Below are positions 1-12,925 of a stretch of DNA of 32,000 bases, piece after piece. Positions within the stretch are counted from its first letter, which is position 1; each line of letters opens with the position of its first letter. A program made the position numbers and the translations under genes. Origin of the DNA: Pyrodictium delaneyi (GTDB taxonomy: Archaea; Thermoproteota; Thermoprotei_A; Sulfolobales; Pyrodictiaceae); NCBI RefSeq assembly GCF_001412615.1, contig NZ_CP013011.1:1230001-1262000 (forward strand). Direction: 5' to 3'. A model generated the notes under the pieces. It was not told the DNA's origin and made no database searches. It was given only the letters and a program-made list of their open reading frames with translations.

Positions 1-2185
1 CTATGTAGTTTATCGGGGTAGTATAGTCGCTCGCGTCGAAGAACGACGCGTACCCGTAGTGCGGTATAAACAGTGATGTCGCCGTCAGTGTTAGGCCTAG
101 CGACGGTATCCAGACATAGGTTATCGAGCCGTCGCTGGCTATGGTGTCGTCGCGTGTGCCGGAGTAGCCCGGCGCAACCTCCTCCGTGATGAATATCATC
201 TCTGTGAGGCCGTTACCGTCGGTATCGGCTAGGAAGAAGTATGGATCTAGACCGCCGGTGACACCCGGTACGAAGCGGTAGATTGCTATCTCGCCGCCGC
301 TGCCGCTGAACCTGTCTATCCTGACGTATATGCTCGCGGCGGCCGACTGGCTAGCCGATGTAACGTTGTACAGCCATCCACTATAGTAGTAGAACCCGAA
401 CGCGTCTGTATCGTTTAGAAGCTGGTCTATATAGCTGTAGTACACTCTTAGGCTGCCCTTCGGGACGTTAACGCTGACAAACTTCAACTTATACGGGAAC
501 TTGTTCACGAACACGTAGCCGGATGACCCGGAGGCCTCGGAGACCCACCACCTACCCCTGCCAGACCCGGTAGTGCCCGCAGCCGTCTCGCCTACCAGGC
601 TGCCGGAGTCCACTAGTGTAGCGTTGTACACCGTTACAGTGCCGCTGAGTATCTCGCCGACGCCGTCGCTGTAAGTCGTGTTGCTCGACACAAGCTCGAG
701 GTAGCTGACACTGTACTCGAAGTAGTAGTCCTGGCTGCTACTCGTATCGTTGTAGGCTACGAGGAGCCTGCAGGGGCTTTCAGCCGTCCCGGCTACTACG
801 TCGAGCCCAGTACTGGAGGCGTTGACGTATATTATCGAGGACGAGGGGCAGTACAACATGCCGTAGAGCTCGTAGTTAGGCGAGGGCACAGCCTTAAGCA
901 CTGCGTAGAGCCCGTAGTCGTAGTCAGCTATGTCTATGCCCCCGGCTAGTACGTCGAAGCTTGCGCCGTCGAGTACTAGCTCGAAGGACGGTTTCCTCGC
1001 AGCATTCATAGATGATAGCGTCATGTTGTATAGTACTTCCTCTATACGCTCAGCGGTAGCGCCGCCGCTACTCCAGCATAGCTTGATGAAGTTACCGCTA
1101 GCAGTCTCGCCGCTGGAGACGAATACTCTCCCAAACCAGCCGAGCCGGAGGCCCTCCAGCTCGTCGTCATCGTCGGTCGACGCGCCCGACGGGTACGCGA
1201 CGCTGCCAAAGTACGACGCCATACAGAATACGCGCTCGCCGTCGCCGAGCTCGATATACATGAGCATTGGCCGGGGCTGCAGGATAGGATCCGGCGCTAG
1301 CGCGTACGCAGACACCATGACTGATACTGGTATTAGGGGCTTGCTATAGTCGCCGCCAGCACCACCTACAATACTGGATCCGGCAACAACAACAGCATTC
1401 GACATGAACACCTTCGAGAGCTCAAGGTAGTCTATATACGGCATAAAGGCGCCCTCAACATAGCTATAAGTCCCCGAGACAGACTCGTCATCGTCACCGC
1501 TCGCACTCAGCGAATAGCCATAGTAGCACGCAGACTTCATAACGCCACTATAGAGTATAGACGTATTCGTGGTATCCGACGTGAGGTTAGTCGTCAACAC
1601 CACGTCAGGATTCTCGGTAAGATCAAGCAGAGTAGTGGCATTAGAGAACGTGAAGTAGGTGCCCTTAAGGCTCTGCGCCACAGCAGCCTCCTGTGCAAAC
1701 TGCGCTACAGTAGACGCGTACACAGGAGCATAGCCACCAGAAGCAGTAGCAACACCCAGAAGCTTACCACCGCCAATACGCACCTCAAACACGCCGCCAG
1801 GCGCCATAACCACCTCCGGACCCCTAGCAGACGCGTCCCGGACCAAGTCGACATCAACACTCACATTACCAACCACACAGCCCTCCAGACAACCACCAGG
1901 CCGGAACACAAGCACATCGCCAGAATCACTCTTCACAACAAGCACAGCAACACGCACATCCCCGGCCTCAAGATTCTCAACACGGTAGACAACAGGAGGC
2001 CCCGTATCAGTCAACGTAATATTAAGCCGAGGCACAGTAGCCCTAAGCTTCTCCCCCAGCCCGACAACCACCAAGTTAGCAACACTAGTAGAACTAAGCA
2101 CACTAGACACTACAAACGGCATCACAGCTACCAACAGGAAACTCAACACAATAAGCCCAGCAACAGCGTTAGACAAACCACGCAT
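1..2185 (-). CDS. Large secreted/cell-surface glycoprotein with an archaeal class III (type IV pilin-like) signal peptide. The 5' end is complete and the 3' end runs off the window (>728 aa).
   Basis: This ORF is absent from the supplied track because it has no stop inside the window. My manual minus-strand translation from the ATG (complement of 2183-2185) to position 1 is open. The N-terminus MRGLSNAVAGLIVLSFLLVAVMPFVV has a short basic n-region, a G|LS site and a hydrophobic helix. There are more than 10 N-x-S/T sequons (NITL, NVSV, NATT, NLTS, NTSI, NMTL, NASS, NDTS, NTTY, NATL, NVTS). Only one weak 139-aa antisense ORF lies on the + strand across these 2.2 kb. Confidence 0.7.
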   Translation of the reverse strand, partial: MRGLSNAVAGLIVLSFLLVAVMPFVVSSVLSSTSVANLVVVGLGEKLRATVPRLNITLTDTGPPVVYRVENLEAGDVRVAVLVVKSDSGDVLVFRPGGCLEGCVVGNVSVDVDLVRDASARGPEVVMAPGGVFEVRIGGGKLLGVATASGGYAPVYASTVAQFAQEAAVAQSLKGTYFTFSNATTLLDLTENPDVVLTTNLTSDTTNTSILYSGVMKSACYYGYSLSASGDDDESVSGTYSYVEGAFMPYIDYLELSKVFMSNAVVVAGSSIVGGAGGDYSKPLIPVSVMVSAYALAPDPILQPRPMLMYIELGDGERVFCMASYFGSVAYPSGASTDDDDELEGLRLGWFGRVFVSSGETASGNFIKLCWSSGGATAERIEEVLYNMTLSSMNAARKPSFELVLDGASFDVLAGGIDIADYDYGLYAVLKAVPSPNYELYGMLYCPSSSIIYVNASSTGLDVVAGTAESPCRLLVAYNDTSSSQDYYFEYSVSYLELVSSNTTYSDGVGEILSGTVTVYNATLVDSGSLVGETAAGTTGSGRGRWWVSEASGSSGYVFVNKFPYKLKFVSVNVPKGSLRVYYSYIDQLLNDTDAFGFYYYSGWLYNVTSASQSAAASIYVRIDRFSGSGGEIAIYRFVPGVTGGLDPYFFLADTDGNGLTEMIFITEEVAPGYSGTRDDTIASDGSITYVWIPSLGLTLTATSLFIPHYGYASFFDASDYTTPINYI

Positions 2186-2369
2186 ACCAGACACGCCCCA
2201 GAGTATAACAAGAAACTATACCACACCTATACACCTTATTATCACCAACCCCACACAAACAAAAACAAACACAAACACACACGCCGACAAAAACACCACC
2301 CCACCCACAGCAGCCCAAATAAACCCCAGCCCAACAACCACAAGCCAACAAACACGGAACACCAGAGAA

Positions 2370-2480
2370 GGGGCCGTCGTCTAGCTTGGTAGGATGCCAG
2401 CCTGGGGACGCACCCCGCCGCCCCCAGGGCGGGCGCCAGAGCGCTGGTGGTCCCGGGTTCAAATCCCGGCGGCCCCACCA
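2370..2480 (+). tRNA. tRNA-Pro (anticodon GGG) with a 34-nt intron (2408-2441) at the canonical 37/38 position; CCA is encoded.
   Basis: The cloverleaf was folded by hand.
- Acceptor stem: GGGGCCG (2370-2376) pairs with CGGCCCC (2470-2476), followed by discriminator A and CCA.
- D stem: GUCU/GGAU.
- Anticodon stem: CCAGC (2397-2401) pairs with GCUGG (2443-2447).
- Anticodon loop: CU-GGG-G, with G37 as expected for Pro.
- T arm: CCGGG-UUCAAAU-CCCGG.
- The intron contains CCCCAGG (2422-2428), complementary to the anticodon region CCUGGGG. This is typical of archaeal bulge-helix-bulge introns. Confidence 0.8.
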
Positions 2481-2819
2481 TTGCTAAACAATTAAACCCT
2501 AATCTCCTCCTCGTTCTCCCTGGCGTTTGTGTAGCTTCGGGCTCTTGCCGTCTCTCCTGTCTTGTTGTGGTTTTGCAGCGGCTTTGTGGTTGTGACTGGT
2601 TGTGCTGGAGAAGGAGGACTTCTTTCCCCGGGGCCCCGGGGAGCTGCCACCAGCTACCGCGGGGTGTATCGCGTCGTATCTGGCTCTGGGCGTGTGTCGG
2701 GTGCGCGTGGTCTTGGCGTGTTTTCTCGTGGCCTAGGGGGCTGGGGTGCCGAGGAGGCCGGGGCGAGGTGCAGCGTGCTGGGCTTGCTGGAGGCGTGGCC
2801 TGCGAGGCAGCTTGGCGTC

Positions 2820-3526
2820 ATGGCTGGCGTGGAAGCGGTGCCTAGGCCGAGTGGTAGGGGGTTTGCTGAGGCCTGTGGGCTTCTGGCGTTCGTCTACGGC
2901 GACGGCGTGGTGGAGGTGCGTGTGAAGAAGACTAGGGTGCTGGTGGTGGCTAGGGTCAATACGCCTAGGGTTGCGACGCTGTTCGCCGGGGCTCTACGGA
3001 TAATGGTGTTCGCTGGGAGGAGGAGTATGGGCTCTGCGTTCTGCTCTGATGGCCGGCCGGGGCTGAACATGTGCTTCAAGGCGCCGCTGGATCTTGACGC
3101 GCTGAGGAGCCTAGGGCTCGGCGGCATCGCTGAGGGCAAGGCCGGTGTGCGTAGCGACCTAATGCGGTGCCTGGAGTCCGGCTCCGGGGCGCTCTACAGC
3201 GTGGTGGCGGGCTCATCGACAGCGAGGGGCATGTGCGCTCAAAGGCGAGCATTATAGAGATAGGTATGAAGGATGCCGAACTCCTCACGGCCCTCTACGA
3301 GCGGCTCCGCGGCGAGGGCTTCAACGTGGCCGGGGTCAGGGTGCGCGGCGACGGGGTGGCTATGCTGAGGCTGTCGCTGAGCACTGCGGACGGGGACAGG
3401 GCCCGGAGGCTAGTCAACGCCATCTACGAGCCGGGCAAGAGGCTGCTGGCTGCGAGGATGCTGGTACCGAGCTGGCCCGGCGCGGCGGCCCCTACGAGGA
3501 GGCCGTCGAGGCAGTGCGGGCCATAG
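2820..3526 (+). pseudogene. I-DmoI-like double-motif LAGLIDADG homing endonuclease gene disrupted by a 1-nt frameshift at 3209-3212. A further frame change near 3450-3500 may extend it to 3738.
   Basis: Motif 1 is GLLAFVYGDGVV, starting from the in-frame ATG at 2820 of the 2562..3257 ORF. Motif 2 appears only when frame 1 (..ALYSVVAG) is joined to frame 2 (LIDSEGHV..), which gives VVAGLIDSEGHV about 108 aa downstream. The following segment, IEIGMKDAELLTALYERLRGEGFNVAGVRVRGDGVAMLRLSL, resembles the second I-DmoI lobe. Frame 2 is closed by stops at 3095, 3131 and 3152, so a frameshift is required. Confidence 0.6.
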
Positions 3527-3685
3527 CCCGGCGGCTAAGGGCGGCGATGTACAGGGAGAGGGCTGGCTGCAAGGAGTGCGCGGAGACGGTCAAGCACGAG
3601 GCCCTAGCCCTGGCCTCCACGGCCCGGTGGGCCGACGAGCAGGGGGAGGACCAGCCCCAGTCCTCCCCCTCCCACAAGCCACACC

Positions 3686-4309
3686 ATGCACAGCTCCGTG
3701 CGGGGTGCTGGGTCTATGCGTGCCCAGCTGCAGGCTAGCGAGGAGACCTGTAGCCTCGCAGTCCGGTTCCTCGACCCGCTCCCCGAGGCCGCGAGGCGGG
3801 CCCTCGAGAAGGGCGGGCTGGCCCGGCTACGGCTCCGCGGGAAGTGCTTCTCGGGTGTGCTCTACCTGGCGGGCCGCCTCGAGGGCGACGTGCTGGCTGC
3901 CGAGGTGTTCCCTGTCGGCGGCGAGTGCCGCCTAGGTGCCTCCACCAGCTGCACCGTCGAGGTAGAGGAGCTACGGGCCGTGGGCCTCGAGGAGCTGTGG
4001 CGGGGCACCCGCGGCCTCATCCCACCGGCAGTGGACACGCTGGAGCTCCTCGCCGAGGCGGGCGCGGCAGCCGCGGCCTACGCTGGGCTCTCCACGTGGC
4101 CGGCGTGCGACGAGCCCATGCTCTGGGAGGCGCGCGTGGACGGCGACTGCCTAGAGGTCGAGGGCCCCCTCCTATGCACGCCATACCTCCGGGCAGTGCT
4201 CGAGAAGCGCGGGGACGAAGAGGCCTCGAGGGAGGAGGACGAGTGGGTGACTATAGCCCAGGGTGTAGAGCTGAGGGTGTGTAGGGATGGTGTGATACGG
4301 ATCCGGTAG
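3686..4309 (+). CDS. Hypothetical protein (207 aa) with no motif I recognise.
   Basis: This is the longest and most protein-like of several overlapping ORFs in very GC-rich DNA. The alternative frames (3576..3935, 3844..4284) are R/G/P-rich junk. Confidence 0.4.
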   Translation: MHSSVRGAGSMRAQLQASEETCSLAVRFLDPLPEAARRALEKGGLARLRLRGKCFSGVLYLAGRLEGDVLAAEVFPVGGECRLGASTSCTVEVEELRAVGLEELWRGTRGLIPPAVDTLELLAEAGAAAAAYAGLSTWPACDEPMLWEARVDGDCLEVEGPLLCTPYLRAVLEKRGDEEASREEDEWVTIAQGVELRVCRDGVIRIR

Positions 4310-4495
4310 CTGTTTCTTGCTCCACTAAACGTAGACATGATACGTAGTATTACGGGGGAGGCTTGCCCGAGAGAATGGCAAGCCTGATTGCGTAGAGAGG
4401 TTTGTATTGGTTACCGGTTATTCACGGTACTACCTGGCTAATATCTTATCTTAGCCGCCATATTGACGCGTAGTTGACCAGGCTGGGTCTCAGTC

Positions 4496-5689
4496 TTGAC
4501 TATAGGGGGAACAGCTACGGAGAAGAATACAAACATAGAAAGAAGGCTTACAAATCTTGTGCGCGACAGAACTGCATTGAGGGCTCTCCTGCACGCGGTG
4601 AGTCGGGTCGAGGAACTTAACCACTCCGAGTTCCCGGTGGCCGTGGAAGCCGTGGGTCTAACTGGCTCAGCTCTACGCATAGAGGATGCTGGCGATATTG
4701 ATGTGGTGCTTGCTTGCCGCCATAGAGAGGAACGTATGAAGGAATGGTGGGAGTTCGACCAGATACTACGGAAGAGCGTACTTATGCTACTAGAGATGGC
4801 CTATGAGCTTAGCTACGAGACCGGCAGGGCCACGATGGAGGCCTTGACCAGGATATATAGAGCAGAGCTGCTAGAACTAGGGTTCAAGGAGAAATGGCTC
4901 AACAACTGGCTTCCTTTTCTCACCATATCCTGGCTACGCTATGTAGCTAGGCTCCCCGCCGTGCCCCGACTAAGGCCAGTAGGGCTCCTAGATAGGTTTG
5001 TCAGAAAGGGGTGGAGCGGGAAAAGACTCGAGATACATGTAGACCCACTTGACGAGGGCTGCAGGTCGTCAAGACTAGCTACCGGCGTACCCTACATCGT
5101 GCTGTGGAAGAGGGGCCAGGGCTTCGTAGAGCCTAGCAGAGAGGAGCTAGACCGTTTCCTACGAGCCGAGCATCAGAAACTAAAACACCTCGTAAAAGCC
5201 CTAATTGAGCGGGACGTTTCCACTCTTCCCACAGCCTACATGGATATCCTAGGAGCCCTAGAAGCAGAAGAGCCCGTCTGCCCACCCTTCACGCCGCAGG
5301 AATGGTGTACGGCCACGGCGAGGCTCTACAGCGAGGCCAAGCGCCTACTAATCCAGCGCTACAATTACCTCGTAGAACTAGCAAACACAGAACACTGTGA
5401 CACAAGAGAGCTTTCAGAGCTAAACAGGAAGCTGTCAGCTACACTCAAGGAGCTAGAAGCCCTAAGCTACATAGTAAACACGTTATCCAACAGCCGCGCA
5501 CTAGATAAAATAGTAGAGAACATAATATACGGCGCGAAGTCTAAGGCGTCCTTTGGGTCGTTTCTCCAAGAGCTAAAGAATTACCTTATACGCAATGGCT
5601 CTAGAATAGGAGTGAGACGCAAACACCTCCATAAACTCCTAGAAGACTTAACCAGTAAGGCAACTACCATCACATCACCTGGACGCTAG
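4496..5689 (+). CDS. Pol-beta superfamily nucleotidyltransferase domain protein with a roughly 320-aa alpha-helical C-terminal extension (397 aa).
   Basis: An N-terminal helix is followed by the minimal NTase signature GLTGSALRIEDAGDIDVVL, that is G57-S58 ... D67-x-D69, with the DID codons at 4694-4702. The remainder is helical or coiled-coil-like. The gene is visibly more AT-rich than its flanks. Confidence 0.7.
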   Translation: MTIGGTATEKNTNIERRLTNLVRDRTALRALLHAVSRVEELNHSEFPVAVEAVGLTGSALRIEDAGDIDVVLACRHREERMKEWWEFDQILRKSVLMLLEMAYELSYETGRATMEALTRIYRAELLELGFKEKWLNNWLPFLTISWLRYVARLPAVPRLRPVGLLDRFVRKGWSGKRLEIHVDPLDEGCRSSRLATGVPYIVLWKRGQGFVEPSREELDRFLRAEHQKLKHLVKALIERDVSTLPTAYMDILGALEAEEPVCPPFTPQEWCTATARLYSEAKRLLIQRYNYLVELANTEHCDTRELSELNRKLSATLKELEALSYIVNTLSNSRALDKIVENIIYGAKSKASFGSFLQELKNYLIRNGSRIGVRRKHLHKLLEDLTSKATTITSPGR

Positions 5690-5989
5690 GTTACTTGATA
5701 TACTGCTACATACTTATTAGTGAGCGGCTCCATTCTACATTTATGTCATCAACATTGAAGCCCAGGGTATGCATTGCTGCTGCACTCTAGTGTTTCAGTA
5801 TGAAATAGAAATTTATATATCTCAGGCCTTATAGCTTTGTGACGGATTCCCTTGCCGTGCACATGCTCCCCTATACTACACAATTAACTCCTATTATGCC
5901 CGCTCTGGGAAGCTCGTTAGGAATGTGGCGTTGTTCGCTGAATGCGCGGCTCCTGCGGTTATCGTGGGGTGGCGTGTCTATGCTAGAGG

Positions 5990-6745
5990 CTATGCCTGGG
6001 TTACGTGTATGGATATCTTTGCAAGGCATCCGTTATGGCTCCGCAGCTTCTTGAGGGTGTCTTCTACTCTGTGGTCGGTAGTTAGTAGTACTATTTCGCT
6101 GGCATTGCTCGTTATTTCTCTCTCTAGGGTGCAGAGGCTTAGCAGTACAGCTACGTCCTCTCTATCCTTTAGCTTGGATTGTTCTGCTAGCCGTGTGGCA
6201 GTTCGTGCTAGTGCTGTATAGTCTTCTCCTACACCGATTGTACAGCCCAGAGTGTTCTCCAAGTAGTGGTTCAGTACATGCTCTATGCTCGCTGCGAGGG
6301 AGTGTATGGGTCCCGTTGACGAGGCGGCGCGCAGCCAGAAGTAGAGGGTGTCAAGCAGCCCAATGGTGTGCCGTGTGTTATCTAACAGTACTAGCAGCTT
6401 CTCTAGGAGGAGGCCTGCGCTCTGTCTCGGAGAGGGTGCGGTGTGGATGGCCCGTAGGGCTGTGTAGAGTAGAACATCCTCCATGCCTTGCCGCGCCGCT
6501 TCGAGGAGCCTGAGTGCTTGCTGTATGCTCTGCCTGCGGCTATGACGGGGAAACAGTGTTAACACGGCTTGCTTAATGTTCCTATAGTTCTCTAGGAAGT
6601 ACCGTATGCTGTTCTGGAGCCGGTGCCGGAACACTTGGAGCACTGCACGGGTGACGATGCATCGGCCACCACTGGTAAGCTGGGCTAGATGGGGAAGGAG
6701 TGGTGCTCTGGCGTACACCCCTACGTCGAGGGCGTAGAGCTTCAA
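5990..6745 (-). CDS. PIN/NYN-like nuclease-fold protein with a large helical insert (251 aa).
   Basis: The N-terminal strand MKLYALDVGVY carries Asp7. The C-terminal part DREDVAVLLSLCTLEREITSNASEIVLLTTDHRVEDTLKKLR matches the PIN pattern D..hhhA.A....hhhT.D. The TTG start overlaps the upstream stop (TTGA at 6742-6745). Confidence 0.55.
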   Translation of the reverse strand: MKLYALDVGVYARAPLLPHLAQLTSGGRCIVTRAVLQVFRHRLQNSIRYFLENYRNIKQAVLTLFPRHSRRQSIQQALRLLEAARQGMEDVLLYTALRAIHTAPSPRQSAGLLLEKLLVLLDNTRHTIGLLDTLYFWLRAASSTGPIHSLAASIEHVLNHYLENTLGCTIGVGEDYTALARTATRLAEQSKLKDREDVAVLLSLCTLEREITSNASEIVLLTTDHRVEDTLKKLRSHNGCLAKISIHVTQA

Positions 6746-7359
6746 AGCATCTGGCTGGCCTCCTCTAGCCTCTGGAGCCCGGCGAGGTGCTCGGCTAGTA
6801 TCTCCTCGGCTACCCGGGGTAGCTGCTTGACTATGTCTAGGCGCCTCTGCCTCGCTAGTACGGCTAGTGCTGCTAGGAGGGCTACGGCTTTTCGCGAGAC
6901 ATGTATGTGCTCCACATGTTCTACGGAGGTGAGGTATAGTGTCTTGACCGCTGTCAGCGTCATTAGTATCGGCTCTATCTCGGCGAGTTCGCGGCCGCCA
7001 GTATAGCGTCTATAGACGTCCTCATACAGCTCGTCGACGCGTGCTGCGAAGAGCCTAGCCTGTTCCCGGACGTAGCTCTCGACATCGATATACTCGAGAA
7101 GGTGCTTAATGCTTTGGGTCTCCTCCCCCTGTGTGAGTTCCTCTATAATCTCCTCGGCTCTCCTGACAGCTTCCCAGCCGCTGCACGGCGTGGAGGACGT
7201 ATAGCTCTCCTCCAGGCGCTCTACTAGCCGGCGGGCTAGCTCTCGGAGCCGATGCTCCACCTCCTCCCGGATAATCTCCTCGTGCTCCTCCGGCTCCCCC
7301 AGCACGCTGCCTAGCAGGCTAGCGCCTAGCAGAGCCTCGGGCGCCGTGCTACTGCTCAA
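6742..7359 (-). CDS. Acidic, all-helical hypothetical protein (205 aa), the middle gene of the Panacea operon.
   Basis: This is an intact ORF that overlaps both neighbours (11 nt upstream, 4 nt downstream). It is rich in E, R and L. An alternative GTG start lies at 7305. Confidence 0.6.
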   Translation of the reverse strand: MSSSTAPEALLGASLLGSVLGEPEEHEEIIREEVEHRLRELARRLVERLEESYTSSTPCSGWEAVRRAEEIIEELTQGEETQSIKHLLEYIDVESYVREQARLFAARVDELYEDVYRRYTGGRELAEIEPILMTLTAVKTLYLTSVEHVEHIHVSRKAVALLAALAVLARQRRLDIVKQLPRVAEEILAEHLAGLQRLEEASQML

Positions 7360-7798
7360 GCTCTATCACCTCCCCCAGCCTCTTCCCCCGAACCTGTGGG
7401 AGGCTGTAGACATAGCGTATGAGTTCCTCGAGGCTGCGGCCCCGCCACCAGCTGGCAACCCTCTCCACAGCCAAGCGAGCATCATCATCGAGTGATAGAG
7501 CGGCGGGCCTCCGGGCCGCCCGGTACTCTATCTTGCGCACCGTAAGCGTCCAGACGTCGATAATCCTCTCTACGTCCACGAGGCCTTGCTCCTCCAACGC
7601 ATCGAGGACGTCGAGCACCTCCCGGGAGAACGGCCCATAGTGCCAGCGTAGCCAGTGGAAGAGAGGCTTCCGCCCCCTCCGCGCCAGCTCCAGGTCAACC
7701 AGAAACATCATCTTAACTATCTCTGTGCGCGATGCGGGCCTCCCCAGCACCTCTAGCAAGTAATGAACGGCTGCCTGACGCCTATCCAACCTTGGCAC
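7349..7798 (-). CDS. Panacea (DUF4065 / SocA-like) antitoxin-domain protein (149 aa).
   Basis: The pattern ...RTEIVKMMFLVDLELARRGRKPLFHWLRWHYGPFSREVLDVLDALEEQGLV... and the C-terminal part ...RVASWWRGRSLEELIRYVYSLPQ... match my memory of the DUF4065 consensus (KLxKLxYxxD...G.PLF...F.AW.YGP...v...). An AT-rich TATA-like stretch lies upstream at about 7830-7865. Confidence 0.7.
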   Translation of the reverse strand: MPRLDRRQAAVHYLLEVLGRPASRTEIVKMMFLVDLELARRGRKPLFHWLRWHYGPFSREVLDVLDALEEQGLVDVERIIDVWTLTVRKIEYRAARRPAALSLDDDARLAVERVASWWRGRSLEELIRYVYSLPQVRGKRLGEVIELEQ

Positions 7799-7974
7799 AA
7801 GCTTATCCCCACACGCCCTCCTGTACTACGGGTACTCATATAACAAGTCTTTTATTTATTCACCTATAACAGTCTAGCGGGCCGGTTTACACGGCACATA
7901 CTCCACACCACCCGAACATAGCTATGTGGGGCCTAGGACACGCATAGCGGTAATACTGCTCTGGTTATTGTATG

Positions 7975-9084
7975 TTAGTGTATGTTAGCGGCGTCGCTCT
8001 GGGCGGGGCTCTGCGCCTCTAGCCTGGTGTTGTGATTTCTGCTAGTACTGGTTTTGCTCCTGCTATTCTTGCTACTGCCTGTCCTCTGGGGGTTGAGGAG
8101 TAGTGTGGCTAGCTCGGTGCGTGCCTCGGGTCTGGGTGCTAGTTGTTCTGCGAGGCGGTGGGCTGGCTCGGTGCCTGGCTGGCGGTGTGCTATGATTGTG
8201 TGTAGGTTGTGTATGTGTGGGGCTGGGTGTGAGGCGACTAGGATTAGGCGGGTGTTCTTCTTCCTGGCTTCGAGGAGTAGCTGCTCCATGGGCGTGGCTG
8301 GGGCTGTGGTGTTGTGGGCTTCCTCGACGGCGAGGTATAGGAGGGGGTCTTGGCCTGGGCGGCGGTGTTGCTGGAGGTGGGCGGCGACGGCGTGGGCGTA
8401 GAGGCTGCGGCTGCGTGGCGGGAGCCCGCTGAGGTCGACGGCGTATACCCGGCTTGGCCTGGGCTCGGCTGGGTCGAGCTTCTTGCCGGGCCCGGACTTC
8501 AGGAACTCTAGGACTGGGCGGAGTGCCTGGAGCCTCCGCTGTAGCGCGTAGATGCTGTTCCTCACGTCGCGGGCAGGCACGCTCTCGGCTCTCTCCTCGA
8601 GGGCTCTTAGGACTGTGTGTATCCGCCGCCGGGTCGTGGAGAGGGTCTTGGCGAGCAGGATGTGCATGAGGGGGCTTAGCTGGTAGCTCTCGCCGAGCAC
8701 GGCTAGGAGGCTCTCGAGCGCCTCGGCGGCCTCGCGGGGGTCCGGGGCGCCTAGCAGGCTGGCTCGCAGCTCGCTGGGCTCGAGGGCCTCGTCGGCCGTG
8801 TCGGTGTGCTCGCCCTCCCAGTCGAGGATGACAACGGAGGCGCCTTGCCGGGCCAGGGCGCGTGCGAGGGCCTTCAGCGTGGTGGACTTGCCAGAGCCCG
8901 TGGCGCCGAGTATCCCCGTGTGGCCGAGGTCTACGGGGGCCCGGAGGACTGCGCGGCGGCGGCCGCCCGGCCCCAGCACGTAGCCGACGGGGGCGCCCCG
9001 GGCCCAGGGCTCCCGGGTGGAGAGTAGTGGCCAGCCCAGCCCCCGGGCATGGCCATGGACCATGGGAAGCTGCGGCCGCGGCAC
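7975..9084 (-). CDS. Compact HerA/FtsK-like (DUF87-type) P-loop ATPase (369 aa).
   Basis: Walker A is HTGILGATGSGKST (codons about 8884-8907). The Walker B-like motif is LLYLAVEEAH. The pattern VVILDWEGEH is typical of HerA/VirB4-like ATPases. The C-terminal tail is low-complexity and S/T/N-rich. The alternative-frame ORFs in this region are R/G/A junk. Confidence 0.75.
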   Translation of the reverse strand: MPRPQLPMVHGHARGLGWPLLSTREPWARGAPVGYVLGPGGRRRAVLRAPVDLGHTGILGATGSGKSTTLKALARALARQGASVVILDWEGEHTDTADEALEPSELRASLLGAPDPREAAEALESLLAVLGESYQLSPLMHILLAKTLSTTRRRIHTVLRALEERAESVPARDVRNSIYALQRRLQALRPVLEFLKSGPGKKLDPAEPRPSRVYAVDLSGLPPRSRSLYAHAVAAHLQQHRRPGQDPLLYLAVEEAHNTTAPATPMEQLLLEARKKNTRLILVASHPAPHIHNLHTIIAHRQPGTEPAHRLAEQLAPRPEARTELATLLLNPQRTGSSKNSRSKTSTSRNHNTRLEAQSPAQSDAANIH

Positions 9085-9825
9085 AGCTCCGGCACGTCGC
9101 CGGCCTCGGCTACGCGGCCCTCTAGGAGGCTGCAGAGGGCCGGCTCCGGCTGGCTGCAGCCTCCCTGGCCCCTGGTGAAGGCTTCCCGGGCCGGGGTACC
9201 CGGCTCCATCCTCAGACTGGAGCTGGGCGGCAGGGACTACTTTGTCGGCCTAGGAGCTCTCTCCCTGGTGTTCTACTCCAGGCTCCACCAGCTCTGCAGC
9301 GTAGAGCGCAGCGTCGGCTGCTTCGAGCACTGCCTACACCGGTGCAGGGCCGGGGCGAGCGACGGCGGCGCGCTCCTCGTCTACACGGTGGGGCCCCGCG
9401 GGGAGCCACGGGGGCTCGCCGTCTGCCCAGCATGCATAGCTCTGAGGGACAGCATACTGGGAGGCTTGTGGAGCTTCCGCGAGGCCTCGGAGCGGGCCTG
9501 GCGGCTACACCTCGAGGCCCGGGCGAGCTGCTCTAGCAGCTCCCAGGCCCTGGAGAGGCAGCCCTCTACCGCGAGCACCTCGCCGCAGACGACGCCGCAG
9601 CACATGCTCCCGCTCCGGCAAACCAGCATCCTGGCCTCTTCGTCGTCTACGCCGACCTCGCTTCGGAACGCCTCCTCCCACCTCTCGGCTAGGAGCTTCC
9701 CCAGCCCCTCGTTAGGGCTCAGCCCGCCCCCGGGTAGCAGAGTCCCCTGGGGGCCCCAGACCGGGGTAGCCGAAAACGTACCCCTATCCTCCGGTGGCAG
9801 GAGCCCGGGGCTGCTAGGGCTTTAG
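9049..9825 (+). other. GC-rich segment with unresolved coding assignment. It is either an intact 258-aa + ORF or the frameshifted remnants of a minus-strand gene upstream of the ATPase.
   Basis: The + ORF is protein-like only in its middle (LELGGRDYFVGLGALSLVFYSRL..CFEHCLHRC..CPACIAL) and S/T/P-rich junk at both ends. The minus strand is protein-like in three different frames in succession, for example GKLLAERWEEAFRSEVGVDDEEARMLVCRSG... and AVLEAADAALYAAELVEPGVEH. It carries in-frame TAG stops and has no usable start codon. Confidence 0.2.
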
Positions 9826-9967
9826 ATTCCAAGGCCTAAGCGACAAGGTATATTACGCACTTGCTGCTAAGAGGGTAACTATAAGGGTGCTGCGGTCTTG
9901 GCGTATGGTATTGCTGTAGTTTTGTCCCAGCTCTGTGTGAATGCTTGAGTTCATGAATCTTGTTCTC

Positions 9968-9981
9968 GGGGGGGGGGGGGG
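9968..9981 (+). repeat. Homopolymeric G14 tract ending 4 nt upstream of the ATG of ORF 9986..10396.
   Basis: Counted directly from the sequence: ...gttctc G(14) atga ATG... Confidence 0.95.
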
Positions 9982-9985
9982 ATGA

Positions 9986-10396
9986 ATGGATACACATCGG
10001 AGGGAAGAGCATAAGGGAGTCTGTTATAGTGGCGGTCTATACGAGCTGATGCACCGTTTTCAAGGCACAGCATTGGAGAGTATTGATGTGCCAGACGAGA
10101 TCATTCATGCCATACGTACTGCGTATACTGTTATAGAAGGCGATTGTGAACTGCTAGAGAAAATACTAGTACGTGTTAGGGAGGTAGCTAGAGGAATCAA
10201 CCCGGACGCGCACGACGCCTTTACCGCCCTGCTACAAGGGCTTCTCTCAGCCGCTGATAGCCATAGGATAAGCTTGATGTGGAATGAGGTCAATATTGAG
10301 ATAAAGGATGAGGAACAAAGCGGTAGGAGGCTCAGCGTTACTATCCGCGGCATACCTAAGGAGGCCTTAATTACTCTCAGGATCTATAACACTTAG
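9986..10396 (+). CDS. Small hypothetical protein, paralogue A (136 aa) of ORF 14091..14642.
   Basis: It shares colinear blocks with the other copy: (G)xCYSG, EGDC-L, LMWNEV-IE and RG-P. No family is recognised. A possible shorter form starts at ATG 10049. Confidence 0.55.
   Translation: MDTHRREEHKGVCYSGGLYELMHRFQGTALESIDVPDEIIHAIRTAYTVIEGDCELLEKILVRVREVARGINPDAHDAFTALLQGLLSAADSHRISLMWNEVNIEIKDEEQSGRRLSVTIRGIPKEALITLRIYNT
10020..10033 (+). promoter_or_regulatory. Conserved 14-mer TCTGTTATAGTGGC, copy 1 (the identical copy is at 14254-14267). It contains a TTATAG TATA-like core.
   Basis: The 14-nt match is exact in two otherwise strongly diverged paralogous loci, and both copies lie downstream of a poly-G tract. 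The promoter role is a hypothesis only. Confidence 0.3.
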
Positions 10397-10915
10397 AAGG
10401 AATCAATCGGGCACCGTGGTGGGTGAATAGCTGCGTCGCAATGGAGTCTCTCTAACAGGTTTAGTCTCATCAACGCTTGTCGAGCGGGCTTGTGGAGCTT
10501 CCGGACTGCAAGGCTATATGGGGGTTAATATAGGGGTTATGGAGAGTGATGCCATAATATGCCTAGGCTGGAGGTATTGTAGTCCTCACCATACCTTCAT
10601 ATTAGGCATCTCGTGACTTTCGTAATGCGCTACAGTGATGGCATGCCGGCAACTGCAATGGGGCAGTCTTGATTCATGGCTCCATAGTTCCTCCTGGCTC
10701 TGGTTTACATAGGGCTTGCGGGCTGTGTGAGATAGTAGAGATTTGTAGCTTAGACCTTCTAATAAATGTGTACATGTGTTACGTAGAGAAGTATTAAGAT
10801 ATAAGCTGAACAGCTTCATAAAGCCATGATAGTTGGATTAATGCCTCTAAGTTATGTTGTTTTTAGTAGCATGTTGATAACATTGTTGCGGTACCTAATG
10901 GAATTTCAGTAGAAG

Positions 10916-11704
10916 CTAGCATGTTTTTTTCTGTACTGCTATTGCAAGATAGCGCTGCAATTCACGGTAAGCCTTGGGGCAGTCGAAGCCTAGGCTCTTC
11001 CTATAGTGCTTACACCGTTTTCTACACTCGACGACGAAAGGAAGTATTAGTCTCCCATGTACGAAAAGTATTATCTTATGGTGCTCAGTATGTATCGTTA
11101 GCGGTAGTGTTTTCGAGATGCTTTTGAGGGCGAGCTGGATGCCTTCGCGGAGGTAGTCTGGTGGTATCCCGTACCCGGAGGCGATCTCGTCTAGGGCCTC
11201 TGTGATGCCGGTGCCGTCGCGTATGTGTGCTAGTATCGCGTCTTTTAGTAGTCTTAGTACGTGTATGGAGGCTTCGTCGAATTTGCAGATTGTTATGCTT
11301 GTTAGGTCTAGTCTCCGTTTCTCGGCCTCGAGGCCTAGGAGGTATAGGAATCCGAGTAGCTCCTTGGCTGTGACTTGGAAGCCCCAGGCGTCGCTGATGC
11401 ATCTTGCTAGCGTGCCTGCGGTGATTAACCTGCTGGTGTAGAGTGCTATGCACCCCTTGGCGGATAGTGCTAGGCTCCCCTTGTTGGACTCTATGGGTAG
11501 GAGGACGCGCTTCTCTACTAGCTTCTTTGCCTTGCGGTAGACTGTTGCTGTGTTTATGTGTGCTAGGCGTGCTATGCGGTAGGGTGTCGCTGTGCCGGTT
11601 CTGAGGTACCAGAGTAGTATCCTCTTTTCGTTATCGTCCATTTCGGGTATTAGGCGTTGCCACAGCCTCTGTACCCTCTCTTCGAATGCATCGAGGGTTT
11701 GCAT
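10916..11704 (-). CDS. Winged-helix (TrmB/MarR-like) transcription regulator with a Cys-rich C-terminus.
   Basis: The N-terminal wHTH pattern is EKRILLWYLRTGTATPYRIARLAHINTATVYRKAKKLVEKRVLL. The C-terminus ECRKRCKHY..FDCPKAY...KKTC has 4-5 Cys. I prefer the ATG at 11704, preceded by AGGAGGTGG, over the track start at 11728. The gene is divergent from the cytochrome operon. Confidence 0.75.
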   Translation of the reverse strand: MQTLDAFEERVQRLWQRLIPEMDDNEKRILLWYLRTGTATPYRIARLAHINTATVYRKAKKLVEKRVLLPIESNKGSLALSAKGCIALYTSRLITAGTLARCISDAWGFQVTAKELLGFLYLLGLEAEKRRLDLTSITICKFDEASIHVLRLLKDAILAHIRDGTGITEALDEIASGYGIPPDYLREGIQLALKSISKTLPLTIHTEHHKIILFVHGRLILPFVVECRKRCKHYRKSLGFDCPKAYRELQRYLAIAVQKKTC

Positions 11705-11890: not shown

Positions 11891-12925
11891 ATGGTGTCTA
11901 GGAGGGAATTCGTAAAGAAGACCATGCTAGTCGTCCTAGGAGGCCTAGCAGTATCGCGCCTAACACCCCTAGCCCGTGCAGCCGGGGAGGCCGCGGGGCA
12001 GGAGGCTCCATCACTCCCATGGCCCTACGTAGAGCTGGACCCGGAGGAGACCCGGAAGCTAGGCCACCTAGGGTACTACATGTTCGAGTGCGCGGGCGGA
12101 GCCTTCTGGGCGATAACAGTCCAGCTCAAGGAGAAGATAGGCTACCCGTGGACCCTCCTACCCATACCATCGCGTGAGGAGGTCATGAAGGCCCTGGAGG
12201 AGGGGAGGCACATCCCCGGCCTCATGCAGTATGGCTACGGCGGCGCCGTGGGCTGGGCGAGCCTATGCGGCTCGCTGAACGGCGCCCTCATGGCGATAAA
12301 CATGGTGCTCGGCGAGAAGGCGGAGTGGGACAAGATAGGGAAGCTCTTGATGAGGTACTATGAGACTACGCCTCTGCCGACTGAGAAGAGCAACGAGTAC
12401 GCGGTTAAGGGGGAGTTCTACGTCAAGAAGCTCAAGAGCGACAAGTGGCTCCCGCAGAGCGTGAGCGGCTCAGTACTATGCCACGTATCCGTGAGCAAGT
12501 GGTGCCGGGTCTCCGGCTACGCGAGCGGCTCCAAGGAGAGGGCGGAGCGCTGCGCCCGCCTAACCGGGGACATAGCGGCTAGGGCGGTCGAGCTGCTAAA
12601 CGCCTACAAGCGTGGCAGACTCGAGGAGGTAGCAGCTTCGCTCACACTGTCACCCACTACTGCTAGCTGCCGTGTCTGCCACTATAAGGGCAAGGACTAT
12701 GAGATAGGGCAGTTCACGCGCGGCTACATGCAGTGCGAGAGCTGCCACACCGACATGAGGCCCCACGCTCACACCTTCGTAGACATAGCTAGGCCTAGCA
12801 GCGAGCCCGCGGAAGAGGCTGGCTCGTCTAAGGGGCTCCTCGCAGCCGGCGCAGCAGCTGGCGCAGCCATAGGAGTGGTAGCTGGTGCACTAGCATCCTC
12901 GAAGAACAAGGAGGAGCGGCAGTAG
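11891..12925 (+). CDS. Tat-signal, membrane-anchored dihaem c-type cytochrome fused to a C_GCAxxG_C_C-type redox domain (split-Soret-cytochrome-like architecture).
   Basis: - The twin-arginine motif is MVSRREFVKK followed by a hydrophobic stretch and ARA.
- The N-terminal domain blocks YMFECAGGAFWAI, SLCGSLNGALMAINMVLG and LCHVSVSKWC...RC fit the C_GCAxxG_C_C family.
- There are two CxxCH haem-c motifs: CRVCH (12668-12682) and CESCH.
- The C-terminal Ala/Gly-rich TM helix is followed by KNKEERQ. Confidence 0.8.
   Translation: MVSRREFVKKTMLVVLGGLAVSRLTPLARAAGEAAGQEAPSLPWPYVELDPEETRKLGHLGYYMFECAGGAFWAITVQLKEKIGYPWTLLPIPSREEVMKALEEGRHIPGLMQYGYGGAVGWASLCGSLNGALMAINMVLGEKAEWDKIGKLLMRYYETTPLPTEKSNEYAVKGEFYVKKLKSDKWLPQSVSGSVLCHVSVSKWCRVSGYASGSKERAERCARLTGDIAARAVELLNAYKRGRLEEVAASLTLSPTTASCRVCHYKGKDYEIGQFTRGYMQCESCHTDMRPHAHTFVDIARPSSEPAEEAGSSKGLLAAGAAAGAAIGVVAGALASSKNKEERQ

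Follow-up and report, generated by a model that had tools for sequence, protein, structure and literature searches.

No known antitoxin domain is more promiscuous than Panacea, and it is debated whether it serves as the neutraliser or as a sensor. In multidomain PanA proteins of the PanAT toxin–antitoxin (TA) systems, an appended domain (PAD1, Phd-C or ZBD) neutralises the toxin, and the Panacea domain was proposed to be the sensor (Ernits 2023, PMC10440598). Three-gene architectures were allowed by Kurata 2022 (PMC8832971), and in the portion of Dataset S1 of that study covered here, crenarchaeal PanAs are given as 'no_PanT' and Pyrodictium is unlisted. PIN-like nucleases, which include the VapC toxins, were described as having a Rossmannoid α/β/α core of five parallel strands (S1–S5) and helices H1–H5 with three near-invariant catalytic positions, among them an Asp after S1 and an Asp/Glu after S4; the position after S2 takes up the H2′ insert of VapC and the helical arch of flap endonucleases (FEN) (Matelska 2017, PMC5499597). 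Here, 32,000 nucleotides (nt) of the genome of Pyrodictium delaneyi (NZ_CP013011.1, positions 1,230,001 to 1,262,000 of the forward strand; this whole stretch is referred to as the window) were analysed, in which three minus-strand open reading frames (ORFs), Pyrde_1251 (A), Pyrde_1250 (B) and Pyrde_1249 (C), follow one another. They are read as a three-component TA or abortive-defence cassette, with C as the candidate effector and A and B together as a putative PanA-type antitoxin split over two genes, and this reading is given a probability of about one half.

The three ORFs had been described in an earlier note on this DNA as an overlapped unit with its own AT-rich upstream region, and both points were confirmed, the coordinates and the quoted peptide stretches exactly. 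The overlap is 11 nt between A and B (7349-7359) and 4 nt between B and C (TTGA, 6742-6745; ...CAG ATG CTT TGA / TTG AAG CTC TAC). The 176-bp spacer upstream of A has 48% GC, compared with 60% in the three genes; a TATA-like box, AATAAATAAAAG, is located at 7849-7860 inside a zone of 29% GC (7830-7870), and a leader, GGAGGGCGTGTGGGGATAAGCTT, at 7799-7821 adjoins the GTG start of A. Box and leader (GGAGGG..GTGGGGATAAGCTT) are kept in four of the loci collected from other genomes and metagenomes (L004, L005, L007 and L002; collected loci are numbered with the prefix L), in relatives of a kind whose A is only 67-78% identical. Upstream, A is bounded by an in-frame stop (TAG, 7826-7828), and the starts of its orthologues match the GTG at 7798. 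A, B and C form one translationally coupled operon with a promoter of its own. The annotations of two P. delaneyi strains contain all three genes, which are under purifying selection, with ratios of nonsynonymous to synonymous substitution (dN/dS) of 0.10-0.34, counted only where dS was unsaturated. To the L004 orthologue of A, the gene caller had added an N-terminal extension of 16 amino acids (aa) from an upstream ATG (L004 5773-5820), which is probably not real, because the corresponding frame of the window is closed by the TAG and the other orthologues begin at the MPRLD position.

Searched against Pfam, A gave PF13274 (SocA_Panacea) as its single match (E 2.3e-4, profile positions 2-107 of 113), with 22.5 bits falling short of the gathering threshold of 25.7 bits. 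The assignment of the first product to SocA/DUF4065 in the earlier note nevertheless held: window A is under the Pfam cut-off, but all six of its six orthologues match PF13274 and no other family (best E 2.6e-6), and more distant relatives (tblastn E 1e-12 to 1e-22) reach 31.1-34.2 bits on this profile, above the cut-off. In RefSeq the protein is named 'SocA family protein', and the label in RefSeq and UniProt alike is that of a SocA/Panacea protein; A also matches PADLOC PDC-M19A (4-115 of 294) and the C-terminal part of the DarG model of PADLOC, as well as that of NCBIfam's own DarG model. Judged by these sequence comparisons, A, though divergent, is a true Panacea protein of the stand-alone type. 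It is the best conserved of the three genes, and no relatives of it were found in IMG/VR viral contigs.

The middle protein, B, had been called acidic, helical and unmatched, which was borne out. It carries a net charge of −15 (isoelectric point (pI) 5.0) and no transmembrane segment, its predicted structure is all-helical (predicted local distance difference test (pLDDT) score of 68), and no family match was obtained in Pfam, NCBIfam or PADLOC (PADLOC limit E 0.01), including none to AbrB, RHH, PHD or MerR. Foldseek with the model returned generic helical bundles only and no fold match. B has no conserved catalytic motif, is the fastest-changing gene of the three, and was recovered as just three clusters among 5.8 billion proteins.

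The triad occurs elsewhere, as the proposal of a module implies, in five related contigs with different flanks (clade 1) and in a second clade. Within clade 1, A, B and C stand in the same order and on the same strand in L001 and L007 (Thermoproteota metagenome-assembled genome, MAG), L002, L003 (Pyrolobus MAG) and L004 (close Pyrodictium relative), and the genes overlap or are separated by less than 30 nt. The flanks vary, with spermidine synthase and TrmB next to the triad and a HicAB-like pair downstream in L001/L007, and DNA methyltransferases and HicA in L002. Two further, independent assemblies (L005/L006) hold a wrecked copy, in which promoter and leader are intact, A is a pseudogene with deletions of 2, 58, 5 and 1 nt (the RWHYGPFS core is lost with the 58-nt one), C is missing, and the next gene is of the radical S-adenosylmethionine (SAM) type. 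B is intact in both, with 80-82% identity to window B (two alignments) and a dN/dS of 0.28, and is thus tolerated in the absence of A, and apparently also maintained.

The second clade was obtained by scanning metagenome contigs with an alignment of A, so that its 80 loci were all found through A, which shows 34-43% identity to window A. Overlapping A by 27 nt, the next gene in almost every locus encodes an acidic helical protein of 199 aa (B2, pI 4.7), which equals B in length and position and has undetectable sequence similarity to it. Some of the loci encode a third protein behind B2, C2 (228 aa), whose homology to C extends from end to end (hhalign 98.6%, E 1e-15) and in which LDVG, D-R-E-D and TTDH are preserved. 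In both clades the charges are alike, with a net charge of −15/−16 for B and a pI of 8.5-9.9 for C. The partner genes of A are conserved, co-directional and close in at least two species, which is what Kurata 2022 looked for, since A-B-C recur in L001-L004 and L007 and A-B(-C) in the 80 clade-2 loci. The state of C was scored in the 54 clade-2 loci with at least 720 bp after B: the gene is intact in 19 and absent in 28; in 3 it is split by frameshifts, and in 4 only a short N-terminal remnant is left. On the B2 tree, loci with and without C are thoroughly interleaved, and C was therefore lost many separate times from an ancestral triad. A and B are retained whatever the state of C, with median dN/dS values of 0.19-0.29 for clade-2 A and B2.

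This retention of A and B in all clade-2 loci under purifying selection, with C often absent, would also suit a pair in which B is the PanT toxin, A its antitoxin and C a dispensable accessory nuclease; PanT toxins are extremely diverse and often unannotatable (PMC8832971), and fused toxin-antitoxin proteins such as CapRel are known (cited in PMC10440598). It is, however, the least probable of the explanations considered. B is not a toxin that needs A, because in L005/L006 it is intact and constrained beside a decayed A; moreover, it is strongly acidic, lacks a transmembrane segment and a conserved catalytic motif, and has no detectable similarity between the clades, and the invariant residues of catalytic type are carried by C, not by B.

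In eight clade-2 loci, A and B2 are fused in one ORF, the junctions being of at least two unrelated kinds, a direct read-through (...KEAWLGKPLLGMVREAAIAV) and a Pro-rich linker (...EEAKKRQPEELPPGTEGPVAAA). A third fusion type was observed in L085/L086 (~4290-4340), where a frameshift in the end of A (…LLTYNIQPRGGEGGMAGE…) has replaced the C-terminus of A by the translated leader of B; the change may have arisen recently by mutation, or the two contigs may share an error of assembly.

C was modelled with AlphaFold (AF2) from a six-sequence alignment, at a pLDDT of 87.2 and a predicted template modelling (pTM) score of 0.88; the protein is basic (pI 9.5). According to DSSP, the model consists of S1 (residues 2-6), two short helices, S2 (27-32), helices over residues 33-166, S3 (169-172), helices 176-189 and 195-211, S4 (217-222), helix 226-234 and S5 (244-248), and its five strands and helices follow the order of the PIN-like core along the chain. 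An insert of ~170 aa had been claimed for this protein; the material beyond the PIN-like core measures ~115 aa (model residues 53-166), and topologically it corresponds, in the model, to the helical arch of FEN and to the H2′ insert of VapC. Across a 13-member alignment of C reaching down to 18% identity, D7, V8, T32, L134, S153, D194, E196, D197 and D224 are invariant. The Asp downstream of S1 in PIN-like nucleases has its counterpart in D7, the acidic residues before S4 in D194, E196 and D197, which open helix 195-211, and the Asp/Glu downstream of S4 (217-222) in D224 (Table 1).

Sequences of C are few: six clusters were recovered among 5.8 billion proteins, ten proteins were obtained when 1.84 billion representatives were searched exhaustively by HMMER with the profile of C, and a further search of a large protein collection with the C alignment gave no new members. 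In clade 1 and nearer relatives, Cys29 (6659-6661, start of S2) and Cys168 (6242-6244, just before S3) are invariant, and clade 2 lacks both. The two could be joined in a disulfide or a metal site, which would stabilise the sheet in hyperthermophiles. C was also considered as a methyltransferase, a HAD or a Toprim protein, and these readings were rejected: after S1, the Gly-rich loop and DxD are absent, the residues before S4 are acidic and not Lys, and D-x-E-D is not preceded by a strand.

Table 1. Coordinates of the operon and of predicted elements of C in the window (residue numbers refer to C)
Feature	Position	Strand	Description
Promoter/leader region of operon	7799..7974	(-)	TATA-like AT-rich box and conserved leader
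Gene A	7349..7798	(-)	Pyrde_1251, 149 aa, GTG start; stand-alone Panacea (SocA/DUF4065) protein, pI 9.4
Gene B	6742..7359	(-)	Pyrde_1250, 205 aa, TTG start; acidic all-helical protein, no family match
Gene C	5990..6745	(-)	Pyrde_1249, 251 aa, TTG start; basic alpha/beta protein, strands and helices in PIN-like order; candidate toxin/effector nuclease, metal-dependent
C, Asp7 codon (motif LDVG)	6725..6727	(-)	Directly after S1; invariant in 13 sequences
C, helical insert, residues 53-166 (~115 aa)	6248..6589	(-)	S2-proximal helix to S3; DSSP of model; net charge +4
C, Asp194-Arg-Glu196-Asp197 codons (D-x-E-D)	6155..6166	(-)	N-terminus of the helix preceding S4; D194, E196 and D197 invariant
C, Asp224 codon (motif TTD)	6074..6076	(-)	Directly after S4; invariant

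In the proposed cassette, C would be the effector, a basic nuclease dependent on metal ions, whose PIN-like catalytic core would comprise Asp7, Asp194/Glu196/Asp197 and Asp224 and whose insert of ~115 aa would be arch-like. This role is suggested because its invariant residues are of catalytic type, its charge is basic, and it was lost repeatedly, as happens with toxin genes. A and B would jointly be the antitoxin, that is, a multidomain PanA split over two genes, because B is kept with A in the clade-2 loci (all found through A), their translation is coupled, the two are fused in some loci, and B is acidic where C is basic. Within this unit, the Panacea protein A would be the conserved scaffold or sensor, and B a fast-evolving acidic neutraliser that binds and blocks the basic nuclease; rapid change of B, up to the undetectable similarity between B and B2, is as expected for a neutraliser. 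If A and B were lost or triggered, C would be freed and would cleave RNA (or DNA), and growth would stop. The roles implied by the earlier note, a PanA antitoxin with the middle protein as an extra, did not stand, as the A-B fusions tie B to A, and C is the part that is lost. Whether this amounts to a new archaeal class of three-component immunity or addiction systems, with a Panacea sensor, a detachable acidic neutraliser and, as effector, an unrecognised PIN-like branch with an arch-like insert, is a tentative proposition that is put forward with more doubt than the cassette itself.

Several results weigh against the cassette as proposed. No significant match of C to a PIN family was obtained in Pfam, NCBIfam, PDB sequences, hhalign comparisons or Foldseek searches of PDB and BFVD. 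Direct searches with C in Pfam, NCBIfam and PADLOC (same limit as for B) gave no match; Pfam searches with the 13 full-length members and nine core chimeras, from which the insert had been deleted, gave only NYN, for one member (E 0.04-0.11), and NCBIfam gave nothing with either form. The family profile retrieved chance matches only from PDB sequences (spike and BTB proteins), and the core chimeras retrieved nothing. In hhalign, the C core against VapC (3TND) and FitB (2H1O), singly and as a mini-profile, reached E 0.2-0.4, with collinear segments that are not significant. With the full C model, PIN proteins were absent among the best 50 Foldseek matches in PDB, where Rossmann-type methyltransferases were best (E 0.2-1), and in BFVD the best match was ArgRS (E 0.019), no match in either reaching E <= 0.001; three FEN-like models, two of XRN and one of a T4-type RNase H, were among the best 20 BFVD matches, at non-significant E values of 0.44-2.6. 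The fourth acidic residue, usually located after S2 or in H2′, is not conserved in C, in which Thr32 is invariant after S2 and an acidic residue at 37-40 is present in some members only. No PIN genes were found among the collected loci, and scanning viral contigs with VapC yielded a single locus. Probably, the split core with its 115-aa insert defeats local structure alignment. The claim of the earlier note that the third product is an expanded PIN-like protein thus stood in part: the order of elements and the invariant acidic residues fit, and the sequence and fold searches are not significant. Membership of C is unproven; a PIN-like nuclease is the best structural reading of the model and is considered fairly probable.

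These search results could also be accommodated if no TA system were present and C were a non-toxic enzyme (an RNA-processing or repair nuclease, or another Rossmann-like protein), with A and B as regulators or substrate adaptors, or if all three were mere co-transcribed genes of an island. The missing PIN match, the methyltransferase- or ArgRS-like Rossmann folds found best, and the tiny size of the family, limited to few archaeal lineages, speak for this explanation, which is nonetheless regarded as very unlikely. After S1, C lacks a glycine-rich loop of the SAM or nucleotide type (G, S or N at position 9), its conserved residues are acidic and stand at PIN positions, and repeated loss is typical of costly effectors; the distribution is patchy, in variable islands near restriction-modification (RM), HicA, AbiEi and STAND genes, and Panacea proteins are known as TA antitoxins (PMC8832971, PMC10440598).

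As regards B, the further points to be set against the proposed cassette are that its homology between clades 1 and 2 is not demonstrable (hhalign E 0.075), that its model is only moderately confident (pLDDT 68), and that purifying selection on A and B in loci without C could mean a function of their own, although dN/dS in these loci is blurred by the history they share with loci that have C. The nuclease activity and toxicity of C, the neutralisation, the binding partners and the trigger are themselves inferred. Finally, stand-alone Panacea proteins can neutralise toxins directly (PMC10440598), and B is thus possibly not the neutraliser. The operon would then be a classical PanAT pair with an accessory gene, in which A neutralises C by direct binding, with B serving A or C as a regulator, adaptor or chaperone. 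With this would agree that A is the best conserved of the three and that a third, 'accessory' gene is sometimes present in PanAT loci (PMC8832971). The accessory genes of Kurata 2022, however, each occur in a small share of the genomes with the respective pair (PMC8832971), whereas B is present throughout the clade-2 loci, which vary in C; B persists without A and C in L005/L006, and the A-B fusions together with the pairing of an acidic B with a basic C fit B as a contact partner. A merely accessory B is therefore rated as unlikely, and the split antitoxin of A and B with C as effector is kept as the preferred reading.

Neighbouring genes include RM methylases, the HicAB-like pair, AbiEi and STAND-type NTPases. 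In the window, ~11 kb around the triad (1-11700) consist of ORFs without Pfam match at a GC of 0.46-0.69, and housekeeping genes (C_GCAxxG, cytochrome b, major facilitator superfamily (MFS), RIO kinase) begin at ~11.9 kb; no tRNA genes were found in the window. The ~11 kb of Pfam-less ORFs with uneven GC suggest that the triad sits in a variable or integrated island. Between 8000 and 10000, where GC is 0.67-0.68, many long overlapping ORFs are found on both strands, e.g. 9049-9825(+) opposite a HerA-like gene, and most of these are probably compositional artefacts. The HerA-like gene itself (7975-9084 (-)) is located directly upstream of the operon and encodes a 369-aa P-loop ATPase of the HerA/DUF87 type (DUF87 E 4e-16; NCBIfam CedD 222-461 of 527; PADLOC mad8), seemingly truncated relative to HerA/CedD. 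It was considered as a fourth component and rejected: it is absent from the other triad loci, and its fragmentary state in L004 and the C-terminal piece left of it in L005/L006 mark it as a neighbour in decay that does not belong to the module.

A pair of DUF7387 and HicA genes was observed 1-4 kb from the triad in three loci (L001 6248-6695; L002 1100-1547; L007). L007 holds, besides this pair, a second, unrelated Panacea gene (177 aa) adjoining a CxxCxxCC protein (TA-type genes at 10730-11177 and 12195-12728), which points to a clustering of TA-type modules. Convergent to the clade-2 cassette, a ~1060-aa protein with an N-terminal nSTAND3/AAA-type P-loop is encoded (L016, L026, L032, L038, L039 and others; L081, L082, L033). 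It lies ~200 bp after B in most loci without C and after C in some loci with it, and a second copy is present upstream in L085/L086; a functional link to A-B is possible.

Loci of similar layout were noted in a Nitrososphaerota MAG (L010 3958-5567) and a Thermoproteota MAG (L011 5938-7464). A Panacea protein 30-33% identical to A, and above the Pfam cut-off, is followed there by a ~130-aa helical ORF and by an ORF of 231-260 aa with an N-terminal LDTYYY, in which D-x-E-D has the relative position known from C. An AbiEi-like gene lies next to these genes in L010, and a 1081-aa Eco57I-type methylase and DUF365 in L011. As homologues of B and C, the second and third genes were rejected (hhalign E 0.02-0.4), and they were counted as analogues only.

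Taken as a natural experiment, these loci present the same Panacea protein with its putative neutraliser separate or fused, and with or without the effector. If the proposed roles are true, the split and fused A-B forms would be an evolutionary snapshot of the assembly of a multidomain PanA and would offer a handle on what Panacea senses, and the cassette would be a thermostable three-part switch from organisms growing near 100 °C. If C is a nuclease, it would represent a new, strongly diverged, large-insert branch of the PIN-like superfamily. The practical impact would be modest, because the family is rare and limited to few archaeal lineages.

Comparison with known systems was made as follows. 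With VapBC, the operon shares the probable PIN-type acidic active site in C, with an Asp after S1, acidic residues opening H4 and an Asp after S4, and the position of the antitoxin gene(s) at the front; in contrast, C has 251 aa compared with ~130 aa in VapC, carries the ~115-aa helical insert, lacks the conserved Glu after S2 and resembles neither VapC nor FitB detectably, in sequence or by Foldseek, and an antitoxin of the VapB type (AbrB/RHH/PHD/MerR) is absent. FEN-like enzymes (T4 RNase H, XRN, flap endonucleases) have a large helical insertion after S2, in the arch position, as C has, but C is without their H3TH/H2TH domain and the extra FEN acidic residues. In toxin–antitoxin–chaperone (TAC) and other three-gene TA systems (paaR-paaA-parE), three genes are likewise co-transcribed and a third protein aids or controls the antitoxin; unlike in TAC, B is all-helical and acidic and not SecB-like, and there is neither a pair of the HigBA, MqsRA or HicAB type nor a transcription-factor domain. 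Domains related to A are used in the defence or antitoxin proteins PADLOC PDC-M19 and DarTG; only the Panacea-like part matches, however, B and C correspond to no PADLOC model, A is without a macrodomain, and the locus is without DarT.

PanAT (PMC8832971, PMC10440598), the nearest of the known systems, is likewise characterised by a Panacea gene in first place, a tight co-directional operon with unrelated partners and a patchy, island-like distribution, and the published combination of a Panacea scaffold or sensor with a separate neutralising module fits the A-B fusions found here. It differs from the present operon in that the ancestral state here comprises three obligatory genes and not two, the putative neutralising module is separate and fused only in some variants, the families of B and C are new, the hosts are hyperthermophilic archaea, and window A is under the Pfam cut-off. 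In agreement with the earlier note, which knew of no such triad, no description of it was found in the PanA papers or by full-text literature searches. PanAT itself is known; what is new here is a PanA-type module with a split putative antitoxin and a new family of candidate effectors.

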